DNA of 64,000 bases from Escherichia coli O157:H7. Its GTDB lineage: Bacteria > Pseudomonadota > Gammaproteobacteria > Enterobacterales > Enterobacteriaceae. The position numbers and the translations under genes were made by a program. Positions 56,872 through 60,637 of this stretch are shown here, piece by piece (the first letter of the stretch is position 1; each line of letters begins with the position of its first letter). Location: assembly GCF_013167455.1 (NCBI RefSeq), contig NZ_CP038328.1; one strand, 5' to 3'. A model generated the notes under the pieces. The model worked only from the letters and a program-made list of their open reading frames with translations. It was not told where the DNA came from and ran no database searches.

Positions 56872-58155
56872 TTAGTCTTTAGCTGTTGCATTTTGCTTAT
56901 GAAACAGTTCACGGAACACCGGATAAATATCATCCTGGTCGCGGATATGCTGCATCGCAAAGTTGTCGAAAGTAGATTGCAGATGCTCATATTCTCGCCA
57001 CAGTGTCTGATGCGCGCGACGGGTAATTTCGATATAGCTGTAATAACGAACAACGGGTAATAATTTTTTCGCCAGAATTTCATGGCAAAGCGGAGAGTCA
57101 TCGGCCCAGTTATCGCCGTCCGATGCTTGTGCAGCGTAAATATTCCACTGTGCCGGGTTATAACGCTCTTTCACTACCTCATCCATCAGTTTCAGGGCGC
57201 TGGAAACAATGGTGCCGCCAGTTTCCTGCGAGTAGAAAAACTCATGTTCATCGACTTCTTTCGCCTGGGTATGATGGCGGATGTATACGACTTCCACGTT
57301 CTTATACGTTCTGCTGAGGAACAGATACAGCAGAATATAAAAACGCTTAGCCATATCTTTAGTGGATTGATCCATTGAACCGGAAACGTCCATCAGGCAA
57401 AACATCACTGCCTGGCTGGAGGGATCGGGCCGCTTCTCGTAGTTCTTGTAACGTAAATCGAAGGTGTCAATAAAAGGGACGCGTTCAATTTTGGCACGTA
57501 ATTCTGCAATTTCTTTGCGCAGACGTTCCTCTTCCAGCAGCTGCGCAGGTTCACTGTTGCTGATGATGGCCAAATTCTCTTCCAGTGCATGAAGTTCCCG
57601 CCGCTTGCCTGCCGTCATGGCTGTGCGTCGCGCCAGTGAGTTCTGCAAGGAACGCACAACGCTGATATTGGCCGGAACGCCGTTAGCGGTATAACCCGCC
57701 CGATGCGTTTTATATTCGGTCAGCTGGCGTTGTTGGTTTTGTTTCAGATTCGGTAAGGCCAAATCTTCAAAGAGCAGATCAAGATACTCATCTTTCGAAA
57801 TCTGAAAGACAAATTCATCCTGACCTTCACCATCCTGGCTGGCCTGGCCCTGACCACTGCCGGAACCTCCGCCGCCACCCTGGGGACGTTCAATTCGGTC
57901 GTTCTGAACGAAATGGTCATTGCCCGGATGCACGCGGTGGCGCAGACCGCCACGCCCCTGATGAAACATTGGTTCGCTAATATCTTCCGTGGGAATGGAT
58001 ACGGACTCGCCGCTGTCGACGTCAGTCACCGAACGCTTATTAATGGCCTCGGAGATCGACTGTTTAATTTGCGCTTTATAACGGCGTAAAAAACGCTGGC
58101 GATTCACCATGCTTTTGTTTTTGCCGTTCAGACGCCGGTCAATAAACCAGGTCAT
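56872..58155 (-). CDS. yeaH: DUF444-family protein YeaH
   Basis: 427 aa; glycine-rich segment ([11 protein letters not shown]); immediately downstream of yeaG. Confidence 0.9.
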
Positions 58156-58267
58156 ATGCCCCCCGTACTACATTTGCCAACTGTATGCTACGCCTGTGTT
58201 GCCATTTCTCTGGCCCACGGTTCGCTGTCGTTGTAGGCCCGGTAGCATGTGTACCGGGCCAGGGTTG

Positions 58268-60202
58268 TTAAGACGATTTACGTACGCGCAAATACCATTC
58301 GCACAGTAAACGCACCTGTTTACGGGTGTAGCCTTTTTCCATCATACGGTCGACAAAGTCGTCGTGTTTCTTCTGCTCGTCGGTTGACGTTTTGGCGTTA
58401 AACGAGATAACCGGCAACAGCTCCTCGGTATTGGAGAACATTTTCTTCTCGATAACCGTGCGCAGTTTTTCATAGCTGGTCCAGTTCGGATTGCGTCCGC
58501 TGTTATTGGCTCTGGCGCGCAGTACGAAGTTAACAATCTCGTTGCGGAAATCTTTTGGATTACTGATCCCCGCCGGTTTCTCGATTTTCTCCAGCTCGGC
58601 GTTAAGAGACTCGCGGTCAAACAGCTGCCCGGTATCCGGATCGCGATACTCCTGATCCTGAATCCAGAAATCCGCGTAGGTAACATAACGGTCGAAAATG
58701 TTTTGCCCATATTCGGAATAGGATTCAAGGTAGGCCGTCTGGATCTCTTTGCCAATAAACTCGGCATATTTCGGGATCAGATAACCTTTCAGGAACTCCA
58801 GATAGCGTTCTGCCTGCTCTTGTGGGAACTGCTCGCGCTCGATCTGCTGTTCCAGGACGTAGAACAGATGGACCGGGTTTGCCGCCACTTCTACATGATC
58901 GAAGTTGAACACGCGGGAGAGGATCTTAAACGCAAAACGCGTCGACAGACCGTTCATACCTTCATCGACACCGGCGTAGTCACGATATTCCTGATACGAC
59001 TTGGCTTTGGGATCGGTGTCTTTCAGACTTTCGCCATCATAAACCCGCATCTTTGAATAAATGCTGGAGTTTTCTGGCTCTTTCAGGCGCGAAAGAATGG
59101 AAAAACGTGACAGTGTTTCGAGAGTGCCAGGGGCGCATGGGGCGTGAGTCAATTCACTGTGATTAAGCAATTTCTCGTAGATTTTGATCTCTTCGGAAAT
59201 GCGCAAGCAATACGGCACCTTCACGATGTAAACACGATCGAGGAAGGCTTCGTTGTTTTTGTTATTACGGAAAGTGACCCATTCGGACTCGTTCGAGTGG
59301 GCAAGAATAATCCCGTTGAACGGCAGGGCGGAGATACCTTCCGTCCCGTTGTAGTTACCTTCCTGAGTGGCGGTTAACAAGGGATGCAGCACTTTTATCG
59401 GTGCTTTAAACATCTCGACAAATTCCATGATCCCTTGGTTGGCGCGGCACAGCGCACCGGAATAGCCGTAGGCGTCCGGGTCATTCTGCGCGTAATGTTC
59501 GAGTTTACGAATATCGACTTTCCCAACCAGCGCGGAGATGTCCTGGTTGTTCTCATCACCGGGTTCCGTTTTGGCGATAGCAATTTGTTGCAGAATTGAC
59601 GGCCAGACCTTCACTACCCGGAACTTAGTGATATCGCCACCAAATTCATGCAGGCGTTTTGCCGCCCACGGCGACATGATGGTGCCGAGATAACGGCGAG
59701 GAATGCCATACTCTTTTTCCAGAATCTGCGCATCTTCCTGCGGATTGAAAAGACAGAACGGATGATCGTTGACCGGGCTACGCTCACCGTTGGCGCTCAA
59801 TACATAAATCGGTACGAGCTGCATTAATGATTTCAGTCGCTCAGCAAGCGATGATTTACCCCCACCCACAGGCCCCAGCAGATACAGGATTTGTTTCTTC
59901 TCTTCCAGCCCCTGAGCCGCGTGTTTCAGATAAGAGACAATCTGTTCAATCGCGTCTTCCATGCCGTAAAACTCTTCAAACGCCGGATAACGTGCAATGA
60001 CCCGGTTAGAAAAGAGTCGAGAAAGTCTGGGTTCCTGGGCTGTATCGACCATGACAGGCTCACCGATAGCCATCAATAGCCGCTCAGCCGCGTTGGCATA
60101 AGCACTGCGATCTTGCCGACAAGTGGTAAGAAACTCCTGCAGTGTGAACTCTTCGTCCTTGGCAGCTTCATATCGCTGGCGATAGTGATCGAATATATTC
60201 AT
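58268..60202 (-). CDS. yeaG: PrkA-family serine protein kinase YeaG
   Basis: 644 aa; Walker A GPVGGGKSS in the N-terminal AAA-like domain. Confidence 0.9.
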   Translation of the reverse strand: MNIFDHYRQRYEAAKDEEFTLQEFLTTCRQDRSAYANAAERLLMAIGEPVMVDTAQEPRLSRLFSNRVIARYPAFEEFYGMEDAIEQIVSYLKHAAQGLEEKKQILYLLGPVGGGKSSLAERLKSLMQLVPIYVLSANGERSPVNDHPFCLFNPQEDAQILEKEYGIPRRYLGTIMSPWAAKRLHEFGGDITKFRVVKVWPSILQQIAIAKTEPGDENNQDISALVGKVDIRKLEHYAQNDPDAYGYSGALCRANQGIMEFVEMFKAPIKVLHPLLTATQEGNYNGTEGISALPFNGIILAHSNESEWVTFRNNKNNEAFLDRVYIVKVPYCLRISEEIKIYEKLLNHSELTHAPCAPGTLETLSRFSILSRLKEPENSSIYSKMRVYDGESLKDTDPKAKSYQEYRDYAGVDEGMNGLSTRFAFKILSRVFNFDHVEVAANPVHLFYVLEQQIEREQFPQEQAERYLEFLKGYLIPKYAEFIGKEIQTAYLESYSEYGQNIFDRYVTYADFWIQDQEYRDPDTGQLFDRESLNAELEKIEKPAGISNPKDFRNEIVNFVLRARANNSGRNPNWTSYEKLRTVIEKKMFSNTEELLPVISFNAKTSTDEQKKHDDFVDRMMEKGYTRKQVRLLCEWYLRVRKSS

Positions 60203-60637
60203 GGTATGCCGTCCTTTCGTTTTTTAGCACAGGTTAAGAGCCGTTCATATGAATAGTAGAGGCTCCCGGAAGAGGTAAACTGAACGACGTCTCTTGCTAA
60301 AACACAGCAACTCTCATGCCATTTTATCGACGATGAGAACAACGTGCCCGGTGATACACCTTCAAAATTAAGCGTAGATGGCAAATGGAAAACTTGCCTA
60401 CACGGCTTTCTTAATTTCAATGGCATATCAACAACTCATCCATAAATTTTGCATAATTAATGTAAAGACCAGGCTCGCCAGTAACGCTAAATTCATTTGG
60501 CTGTAAGCGCGGTGTCATCCGCGTCAGGAAAATTAAACAGTTACTTTAAAAAATGAAAACGTAAAAAGGTTGGGTTTCGATGTATTGACGGGTAAACTTT
60601 GTCGCCCGCTAAACATTTGTTTAAGGAATGATTAATT

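Follow-up and report, generated by a model that had tools for sequence, protein, structure and literature searches.

The yeaG-yeaH pair lies on the minus strand of a 64-kb window (i.e., the whole stretch of DNA analyzed), next to the divergent mipA gene. The genes and the two hairpins close to yeaH are located as follows:

58268-60202, minus strand: yeaG CDS (from the list of open reading frames, ORFs); 644 aa, with a PrkA-type AAA+ domain and a kinase-like C-terminal domain
56872-58155, minus strand: yeaH CDS (from the ORF list); 427 aa, DUF444/YeaH-YhbH family
60638-61384, plus strand: mipA CDS, divergent from yeaGH; 248 aa, GTG start, Pfam MipA
58236-58260, minus strand: GC-rich hairpin of 9 bp, GGCCCGGUA-N7-UACCGGGCC, in the 112-bp yeaG-yeaH spacer and without a U tract
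56839-56867, minus strand: terminator-like hairpin, 5 nt past the yeaH stop; 11-pair stem followed by UUUUAGCUCA

The original prediction had called an intact PrkA-type/DUF444 gene pair with a 435-bp divergent control region facing mipA, and had linked the pair to stationary phase and nitrogen starvation. The gene calls are upheld by the ORFs and by full-length Pfam matches, the size of the gap is exact (60203-60637), and this physiology agrees with the domain scans and the literature. In the Pfam scan, YeaG matches the whole of AAA_PrkA (PF08298; 1-358/358; E=1.3e-187) and the whole of the PrkA C-terminal domain (PF06798; 1-255/255; E=8.7e-71), and YeaH matches DUF444 (PF04285; 2-418/418; E=4.2e-191). 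The yeaG product is annotated as "protein kinase YeaG" (WP_001019882.1), and its closest solved relative is 9xip, a "Serine protein kinase" (E=7.5e-51); a sequence search for solved structures returned no relative of YeaH. No Rfam family matched within 56872-60637 at gathering thresholds. The hairpin just past yeaH, which is shared with K-12, is the terminator-like end of the operon, where yeaGH transcription would stop. The spacer hairpin may contribute to mRNA stabilization or to attenuation of read-through.

Adjacency of yeaG and yeaH on the same strand was found in 79 of the 80 related gammaproteobacterial loci examined. The divergent mipA-yeaG layout is maintained across the Enterobacterales, and four Vibrionaceae loci (three Vibrio and one Salinivibrio) have weak mipA-like matches upstream of yeaG. 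The same two families are also adjacent in the prkA-yhbH(-spoVR) clusters of Bacillus and other bacteria, whose regulation in Bacillus is, unlike that of yeaGH, linked to sporulation. Autophosphorylation and phosphorylation of AceA have been reported for E. coli YeaG, whereas B. subtilis PrkA showed no such activity and was instead reported to be an ATP-dependent protease (PMC9512850).

A 4.3-kb stretch spanning the locus is 100% identical to O157:H7 genomes in which the genes are annotated as yeaG, yeaH, mipA, and cdgI, and it was found in 5,425 of 5,426 complete E. coli genomes. Identity of at least 99% holds for the 243-bp promoter and leader in 4,984 of 5,424 E. coli genomes and for the whole 4.3-kb stretch in only 1,711 of 5,425. 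K-12 yeaGH (b1783-b1784; Figueira 2015, Switzer 2018, McQuail 2023) is the same locus, with an identical YeaG accession and 99.6% identity across the 243 bp of promoter and leader. The sigma-54 17-mer, sigma-S -10 element, SdsR site, and PhoB box described below are unchanged; the only substitution, at 60400 (position -37 in the upstream promoter), is T here and C in K-12. In the downstream neighbor cdgI, this strain has ATT where K-12 has an ATG start.

The locus is very probably the known yeaG-yeaH stress operon, with a tandem pair of promoters in the 435-bp gap that it has in common with mipA. Adjacent sigma-54 and sigma-38 promoters are described as driving yeaGH in reviews and papers (including PMC10954441). 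For the near-identical K-12 DNA, published work includes sigma-54 on the 17-mer, binding of sigma-70, sigma-38, and sigma-54, NtrC ChIP, SdsR repression, and PhoB binding. The operon, both promoters, the small RNA (sRNA) control, and the mipA-side PhoB site have already been published, in experiments on K-12 or Salmonella, and the O157-like strain analyzed here differs from K-12 in the promoter region by the single base at 60400. The value of the present analysis is one of correction: the promoters are plainly readable, and the K-12 data transfer with one difference in 243 bp.

The promoter nearer to yeaG is of the sigma-54 type:

60306-60322, minus strand: sigma-54 promoter ATGGCATGAGAGTTGCT, with GG at 60320-60319 and GC at 60308-60307; the 16-mer TGGCATGAGAGTTGCT occupies 60306-60321
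60295, minus strand: predicted sigma-54 transcription start site (TSS), an A 12 nt downstream of the -12 C, giving a 93-nt leader on the same strand as yeaG

The 16-mer is the sole exact match (zero mismatches) to TGGCAYN5TTGCW in the 64 kb, both strands included, and its GG and GC doublets stand exactly ten bases apart within a TGGCAC-N5-TTGCW match. With a sigma-54 matrix derived from 41 further sites in the literature, the yeaG site was the top match in the window, and its score of 15.92 bits equals the median of the 41 true sites. Shuffled 64-kb sequences gave maxima of 14.6 +/- 1.4 (highest, 18.3), and the sequence match alone is not decisive because 15.92 bits lies within this range. The 17-mer is identical to the K-12 ChIP-seq site OS18 ("distance 93"; PMC4591121), and the first 16 bases of a Salmonella ChIP-chip site for sigma-54 are the same as in the window (PMC3844500). 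The K-12 ChIP-chip region SigN_113 covers the yeaG gap (PMC3923258), and yeaG is among the RegulonDB sigma-54 promoters. Most Enterobacterales keep the motif, from Escherichia to Dickeya, Brenneria, Rahnella, Serratia, Pantoea, and Tatumella; across these genera GG, GC, and their spacing are invariant while the flanks diverge. We infer the exact start, 60295, from its distance to the motif, and a leader construct ending at -93 agrees with this position (McQuail 2023, PMC10954441).

Many E. coli sigma-54 sites are without known productivity, and the yeaG site might likewise be bound but unproductive, in which case the upstream sigma-S/sigma-70 promoter alone would in effect drive yeaGH expression, and nitrogen induction would be indirect (e.g., through ppGpp and sigma-S). 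A matrix score not beyond that of shuffled sequences would allow this, but the invariance of GG, GC, and spacing amid diverged flanks argues against it. The TSS tables of Cho 2014, glutamine as nitrogen source included, list no start at the sigma-54 position, the sole TSS reported upstream of yeaG being 1864771 (PMC3923258); that study kept a start only if it reached 40% of the strongest, a filter that removed weaker starts. A Salmonella LT2 yeaG promoter fusion was equally active without rpoN, but a constitutive enhancer-binding protein raised Salmonella yeaGH 2.5-fold, and in tandem pairs the dependence on rpoN is hidden in reporter assays by sigma-54-independent expression (PMC3844500). The lack of a canonical NtrC site in 23 species also fits an unproductive promoter; against it stand the NtrC and RNA polymerase ChIP signals at the yeaG promoter and the description of yeaG as activated by NtrC on nitrogen run-out. 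On balance, we consider an unproductive site unlikely and favor a working sigma-54 promoter.

The NtrC searches covered both the window and related genomes. No match to TGCACYN5RGTGCA with up to 3 mismatches lies in 60203-60637, and no canonical site was found with TGCACCAN3TGGTGCA (up to 5 mismatches) in the 200 bp upstream of the sigma-54 motif in 23 species. Within the latter search there was no match at 3 or fewer mismatches of 14, and those with 4 or 5 were scattered, without conserved position. A ChIP-seq peak for NtrC has been published at K-12 yeaGH. Because a ChIP signal is published though a canonical site is absent, NtrC may bind at yeaGH through weak or atypical sites. The published interval cannot place such a site, because the intervals for nac, astC, and ddpX, compared with the centers of their sigma-54 motifs, also fall at or just downstream of the promoters.

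The second promoter lies farther upstream:

60368-60378, minus strand: sigma-S extended -10 element TCTACGCTTAA, with the hexamer TACGCT at 60376-60371, C just 5' of it, and TAA just 3' of it
60363, minus strand: upstream yeaGH TSS (G; sigma-S/sigma-70 type), corresponding to K-12 TSS 1864771 (+); 161-nt leader

The extended -10 element is the sole exact KCTAYRCTTAA in the 64-kb window on both strands, where 0.19 would be expected by chance. CTACGCT occurs at the same place in Escherichia, Citrobacter, Enterobacter, Kosakonia, Pluralibacter, one Erwinia, Dickeya, Brenneria, and Rahnella, and the other Erwinia has CTATGCT. When the upstream 600 nt were searched by pattern in Vibrio, Shewanella, and Alteromonas, neither this element nor the sigma-54 motif was detected. 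K-12 TSS 1864771 was mapped with 1,267 reads under exponential, stationary, glutamine, and heat conditions (Cho 2014, PMC3923258 Table S4), and its printed upstream sequence includes the sigma-S -10 element and ends in ...CCATCTACGCTTAATTTTG (PMC3923258). We placed it at 60363 by its offset from the yeaG ATG (1 mismatch between K-12 and the window in the 51-mer), which is 7-8 nt downstream of the -10 element.

Assignment of this start mainly to sigma-S is our inference, and the start is not exclusive to that factor, because it was also detected during exponential growth and the region is bound by sigma-70. The promoter could in principle be essentially a housekeeping sigma-70 promoter, with the sigma-S label a by-product of growth-phase effects. 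Regions bound by SigD, SigS, and SigN in ChIP-chip all span the yeaG-mipA gap (PMC3923258), so that the sigma-70 region covers the start but a sigma-38 region lies over it as well. Detection in exponential phase would suit a sigma-70 promoter, but the -10 element fits the full sigma-S-selective consensus, upstream C and downstream TAA included, and the -35 element (AGGCAA or ATGCAA) is a poor one, which is typical of sigma-S promoters. In Salmonella RNA-seq, moreover, deletion of rpoS lowered yeaG reads from 5,730 in the wild type to 26 (>200-fold), and the 5' non-coding region behaved likewise. A purely housekeeping promoter is therefore quite unlikely, and a predominantly sigma-S-dependent start at 60363 is preferred. 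A second sigma-S-like -10 (cTACTAT, 60259-60253) was rejected: it lies within the loop of the leader hairpin described below, reads CACTAC or CATTAC in Enterobacter and Kosakonia, and has no published start.

These results overturn one part of the original prediction, which had read no convincing sigma-54 or sigma-S promoter upstream of yeaG, had left the regulatory assignment open, and had proposed weight-matrix searches for both factors and a comparison with published TSSs. An exact sigma-54 consensus (60306-60321) and an exact sigma-S extended -10 element (60368-60378) are both present on the minus strand in the correct orientation and at the correct distance from yeaG. The weight-matrix check gave a positive answer, as did the TSS check, the dominant K-12 start falling 7-8 nt past the sigma-S -10 element. 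With exact consensus matches, OS18, and a mapped TSS, an open assignment for want of readable promoters was not borne out.

In the arrangement that we propose, the upstream promoter, with its sigma-S -10 element, start at 60363, and 161-nt leader, would provide stationary-phase and general-stress expression, and the sigma-54 promoter, starting at A 60295, 68 bases downstream of 60363, would provide NtrC-dependent induction on nitrogen run-out. The astCADBE operon has tandem sigma-54 and sigma-S promoters. Other tandem pairs with a sigma-54 member are glnA p1/p2, glmY, glmZ, and rpoH (PMC3844500). Like all of these, yeaGH has sigma-70-family and sigma-54 promoters that bring two stress signals into one operon. 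Strong upstream NtrC sites are known for glnAp2 and astC, whereas no canonical one was found for yeaGH. A further difference from glnAp2 and astC is that the sigma-S start of yeaGH is upstream, and hence its transcript crosses the sigma-54 promoter; some interplay between the two promoters is conceivable from this layout.

Both transcripts would carry the same 3' leader, whose features are listed here together with the sdsR gene:

60236-60267, minus strand: candidate leader hairpin GGGAGCC - 18 nt - GGCUCUU, directly 5' of the SdsR site
60222-60233, minus strand: SdsR pairing site CCUGUGCUAAAA, a short distance 5' of the yeaG Shine-Dalgarno sequence and conserved in all Enterobacterales leaders
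60212-60216, minus strand: yeaG Shine-Dalgarno sequence AAGGA, 9 nt before the ATG, as read from the sequence
3681-3780, plus strand: sdsR (ryeB); Rfam RF00111 match of 114.4 bits (gathering score, 38)

Located within the window, 56 kb from yeaGH, sdsR encodes a trans-acting sRNA that represses yeaGH translation. Pairing of SdsR with yeaG at -31 to -22 was validated with a GFP fusion and a compensatory mutation (PMC10954441), and the computed duplex agrees with that site. RNAduplex with full-length SdsR and the leader paired everything and was uninformative, and SdsR nt 21-42 were used instead; the resulting duplex (-19.1 kcal/mol, reached by 1.1% of shuffles) pairs SdsR nt 28-41 with 60233-60222 and nt 21-25 with GGCAU at -8 to -4. 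GAAGGACGG, at the Shine-Dalgarno sequence, is invariant in 19 aligned leaders. The sigma-S-dependent SdsR would pair at 60233-60222 in both transcripts and lower translation.

The leader hairpin is a candidate drawn from the comparison of species. In an anchored search, all 23 Enterobacterales leaders had a stem of 5-10 bp at this place (loop length, 3 to 153 nt), and some inner pairs were changed on both sides among the 23. In E. coli alone the hairpin is weak, a competing stem occurs in the minimum free energy structure of the 93-nt leader, and single-sequence folding gave no unusual stability (z-scores, -0.08 and -0.29). RNAalifold on a MAFFT alignment of the leaders missed the 60236-60267 hairpin because the variable loops misaligned its 3' arm; it returned only an invariant small stem (SdsR site plus Shine-Dalgarno), and covariation was absent. 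That the 75-codon ORF at 60199-60426 (minus strand) of the ORF list, whose TGA overlaps the yeaG ATG as ATGA, encodes a genuine leader peptide with translational coupling to yeaG is most improbable, and this reading was rejected: its ATG at 60426 is upstream of the 60363 and 60295 starts and therefore off the mRNA, it has no Pfam match, its frame is broken by one-base A-run differences (even among E. coli strains) and by non-triplet indels between genera, and STM14_1559, the ORF annotated in the equivalent Salmonella region, was read as yeaG 5' non-coding region by the Salmonella authors.

Upstream of both promoters lies a conserved block:

60413-60440, minus strand: conserved 28-bp block GATGAGTTGTTGATATGCCATTGAAATT, at -77 to -50 of TSS 60363 and -145 to -118 of TSS 60295

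The block is almost invariant in 14 Enterobacteriaceae sequences, and its core, TGAGTyATTGAwAT, can be traced to Serratia, Dickeya, Brenneria, and Rahnella. Compared with the NtrC consensus, it showed no match. An IHF reading of the other strand (TATCAAyAACTCA) is a guess; TTTCAA replaces ATCAA in half the species. Tentatively, the block might be an atypical enhancer or might bind an architectural protein (IHF or Lrp, for example), mediating the action of NtrC or another activator, with the leader hairpin setting sRNA/Hfq access or mRNA stability; this joint reading is less likely than not. No description of either element was found in the yeaGH literature examined. The place of NtrC action, the factor that would bind the block, and the candidate leader hairpin chiefly concern specialists in nitrogen-starvation survival and YeaG/YeaH function.

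On the mipA side of the gap are the following:

60449-60466, plus strand: PhoB box TTGCATAATTAATGTAAA, an exact match to the published site
60570-60604, plus strand: mipA promoter, with a -35-like TTGGGT at 60570-60575, -10 TAAACT at 60593-60598, and TSS G at 60604; 34-nt leader

The PhoB site, placed at -180.5 from mipA and -255.5 from yeaG, was supported by ChIP-chip and gel-shift data and by a reporter for mipA (PMC3465305); it is kept only in Escherichia and partly in Citrobacter. In the proposed arrangement, mipA would be transcribed in the opposite direction from 60604, with the PhoB box upstream at 60449-60466. The -35-like and -10 hexamers are putative, being our own reading, and the start corresponds to K-12 mipA TSS 1864530 (-), which was mapped with 33 reads and whose printed upstream sequence ends in ...GGGTAAACTTTGTCG (PMC3923258).

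The yeaG-yeaH locus is ordinary and already described, and the original prediction holds for its gene calls and physiology, although its failure to read a promoter does not stand. The intact genes and the divergent gap that separates yeaG from mipA (60203-60637; exactly 435 bp) were confirmed by the ORF list and by full-length Pfam domains, and the association of yeaGH with stationary phase and nitrogen starvation agrees with the literature.

56872-58155, - strand: yeaH (ORF list; full-length DUF444, Pfam)
58268-60202, - strand: yeaG (ORF list; AAA_PrkA and PrkA C-terminal domains, both full length, Pfam)
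60638-61384, + strand: mipA (ORF list; full-length MipA match, Pfam)

The surrounding 4.3-kb stretch, annotated in matching genomes as yeaG, yeaH, mipA, and cdgI, matches several O157:H7 genomes at 100% identity and was found in 5,425 of 5,426 complete E. coli genomes. YeaG has a solved relative (9xip; E = 7.5e-51), and none was found by sequence for YeaH. YeaG conservation is unusually high: among 80 fetched loci encoding YeaG relatives (L001-L080), E. coli YeaG shares 82 to 89% identity over all 644 residues with homologs from Vibrio, Shewanella, Aeromonas, Pseudoalteromonas, and Alteromonas, and YeaH identity in those loci is lower (59 to 77%). YeaG-type proteins are usually called kinases. 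Autophosphorylation of E. coli YeaG and its phosphorylation of AceA have been reported, and the Bacillus subtilis homolog PrkA has been reported to lack kinase activity and to be an ATP-dependent protease (PMC9512850); the kinase-versus-protease question leaves both gene calls untouched. The 112-bp yeaG-yeaH spacer contains a perfect 9-bp GC-rich hairpin with no U tract (58236-58260, - strand; 8 nt past the yeaG stop), which might determine the amount of yeaG transcript relative to yeaH or shield the yeaG 3' end.

Two promoters were located upstream of yeaG, in agreement with reviews by the Wigneshweraraj group, which attribute transcription of the operon to a sigma-54 promoter and an adjacent sigma-38 (sigma-S) promoter.

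60306-60321, - strand (yeaG strand): sigma-54 promoter TGGCATGAGAGTTGCT, exact consensus match
60368-60378, - strand: sigma-S extended -10 TCTACGCTTAA, exact KCTAYRCTTAA match

The sigma-54 element TGGCATGAGAGTTGCT is the sole exact match to TGGCAYN5TTGCW on either strand of the window (0.40 expected by chance). In a scan with a weight matrix built from 41 published intergenic sites (yeaG's own site excluded), it outscored every other position of the window with 15.92 bits, the median score of the true sites; shuffled windows scored 14.6 ± 1.4 bits with this matrix (highest, 18.3), so the matrix score alone does not prove that the site functions. Published sites provide the stronger evidence: the 17-mer ATGGCATGAGAGTTGCT is identical to K-12 sigma-54 ChIP-seq site OS18, which was assigned to yeaG at a distance of 93 nt (PMC4591121), a Salmonella sigma-54 ChIP-chip site shares its first 16 bases with the window's site (PMC3844500), and yeaG is among the sigma-54 promoters in RegulonDB. 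The unique consensus match and the identity to OS18 go against the earlier statement that no convincing sigma-54 promoter could be read. The predicted start (A 60295) gives a 93-nt leader, the length used in the yeaG fusion of McQuail et al. (PMC10954441).

The sigma-S element is likewise the sole exact match to its pattern in the window (0.19 expected). In the transcription start site (TSS) tables of Cho et al. (2014), the yeaG;yeaH unit has a single strong start (K-12 1864771, +; 1,267 reads), detected under exponential, stationary, glutamine, and heat conditions, and its printed upstream sequence ends in ...CCATCTACGCTTAATTTTG (PMC3923258). By its offset from the yeaG ATG, this start maps to G 60363, which gives a 161-nt leader and lies 7 to 8 nt downstream of the hexamer TACGCT; a unique extended -10 so placed before a mapped start goes against the statement that no convincing sigma-S promoter could be read. 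ChIP-chip regions for sigma-70, sigma-38, and sigma-54 all span the yeaG-mipA gap (PMC3923258), and in Salmonella lacking rpoS, yeaG reads fall from 5,730 to 26, with the 5' noncoding region behaving alike (PMC4330354). K-12 and the window differ at one base, 60400, which is position -37 of the upstream promoter.

Both promoters were searched for by pattern in the 80 loci. TGGCAY-N5-GTTGC is present in 11 of 14 usable Enterobacteriaceae loci (one more came without upstream DNA), 2 of 2 Erwinia loci, both Serratia and both Dickeya loci, Brenneria, Rahnella, Tatumella, and 3 of 5 Pantoea loci; it was missed or displaced in two Enterobacter-like loci, Pseudocitrobacter, both Yersinia loci, Edwardsiella, and two Pantoea loci. 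In Enterobacterales loci, the CTACGCT -10 sits 47 to 109 bp upstream of the sigma-54 motif (55 to 62 bp in Enterobacteriaceae; 79 to 80 bp in Erwinia, Dickeya, and Brenneria; 109 bp in Rahnella). Near variants of this -10 occur in one Erwinia locus and in Serratia and Pantoea. Among the Vibrio, Photobacterium, Shewanella, Aeromonas, and Alteromonas relatives, neither pattern turned up. In E. coli itself, 4,984 of 5,424 genomes keep at least 99% identity across the 243-bp promoter-plus-leader; over the whole 4.3-kb stretch, only 1,711 of 5,425 genomes reach at least 99%.

The leader is the target of a small RNA, SdsR (RyeB), which pairs with positions -31 to -22 (60233-60224 in the window) and lowers translation, as confirmed by compensatory mutation (McQuail et al. 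2023; PMC10954441).

3681-3780, + strand: sdsR (ryeB), sRNA gene
3640-3784, - strand: SraC/RyeA, antisense to sdsR
60236-60267, - strand: candidate leader hairpin (GGGAGCC, 18 nt, GGCUCUU), from comparison of leaders

The sdsR gene thus lies inside the window, 56 kb from the leader that SdsR represses. Computed from the window sequences, SdsR nt 21 to 42 pair with CCUGUGCUAAAA (60233-60222) and with GGCAU directly past the yeaG Shine-Dalgarno sequence, at a duplex energy of -19.1 kcal/mol that 1.1% of shuffled leaders reach. Across 19 aligned leaders, the SdsR site and GAAGGACGG show little or no variation. All 23 leaders compared carry the candidate hairpin immediately 5' of the SdsR site, and its loop ranges from 3 to 153 nt; some inner pairs of the stem vary on both sides (for example, C-G in Escherichia but A-U in Tatumella), and Dickeya and Brenneria carry an extra AG/CU. 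However, the stem core shows plain sequence conservation, and a competing stem is preferred in the fold of the E. coli 93-nt leader. Folding gave the yeaG leaders no extra stability over shuffled sequences (z = -0.08 and -0.29).

A pattern search found no canonical NtrC site in the 435-bp gap, and in all 23 species examined the 200 bp preceding the sigma-54 motif likewise lacked one. The published NtrC ChIP-seq peak at yeaGH is an 80-bp interval, which cannot place the site because the intervals given in the same table for nac, astC, and ddpX also lie at or just downstream of promoters. Between mipA and yeaE, TGCATTACGGTGGTGCA (61440-61456, + strand) matches the NtrC palindrome TGCACYN5RGTGCA with one mismatch; the sigma-54 promoter of yeaG is about 1.1 kb away. 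The window has three such matches, so this one may be chance, and it could also belong to the terminator region of mipA.

60413-60440, - strand: conserved 28-bp block GATGAGTTGTTGATATGCCATTGAAATT, from comparison across species
60449-60466, + strand: PhoB box TTGCATAATTAATGTAAA, exact match to published site

The 28-bp block, which spans -77 to -50 relative to the sigma-S start and -145 to -118 relative to the sigma-54 start, is near-invariant in Enterobacteriaceae and still recognizable in Serratia and Dickeya. An IHF-like reading of it fails in half the species, and a reported Lrp ChIP signal at yeaG is not localized. An atypical enhancer and the leader hairpin are the possible remaining, modest novelty at yeaGH.

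On the mipA side, the start of Cho et al. (K-12 1864530, -; 33 reads; PMC3923258) maps to G 60604 and gives a 34-nt leader; the sequence before it suggests TAAACT for the -10 and TTGGGT for a weak -35. Published support for the PhoB box comes from ChIP-chip, gel shift, and a reporter fusion to mipA (PMC3465305). The box lies about 147 bp upstream of G 60604, so phosphate-starvation transcription may use another start. Conservation of the box is limited to Escherichia and, in part, Citrobacter. Better kept across Enterobacteriaceae is CTGTAAGCGCGGTGTCAT (60501-60518, + strand; ATGACA...GCTTACA on the other strand), which by its sequence resembles a second PhoB/OmpR-type direct-repeat box (CTGTAAG, 4 bp, GTGTCAT). 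Weak MipA-like matches (29 to 31% identity) lie divergently upstream of yeaG in three Vibrio loci and one Salinivibrio locus (L039, L041, L044, and L055); the head-to-head arrangement may therefore be older than Enterobacterales.

Elsewhere in the window, the codon at which cdgI (yeaI) starts in K-12 (56723-56725 in the window, - strand) is ATG in K-12 (GGAAAAATGATT) and ATT here (GGAAAAATTATT). One O157 genome has a 491-amino-acid product annotated from that ATT, and the first in-frame ATG/GTG/TTG, at 56593, would give 447 amino acids; this lineage may make less of this degenerate GGDEF protein, or a version with a shortened N terminus. The second-best sigma-54 matrix match in the window (TTGGCACAGTTTTTTCA; 55355-55371, - strand; 15.70 bits) lies in sense orientation inside cdgI and is probably due to chance, since yeaI is absent from the main text, with its site tables, of the K-12 sigma-54 ChIP-seq paper. 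Two Rfam matches above the gathering score are ordinary known elements.

19274-19734, + strand: cspA thermoregulator (136.9 bits)
38784-38869, + strand: sroD (115.2 bits)
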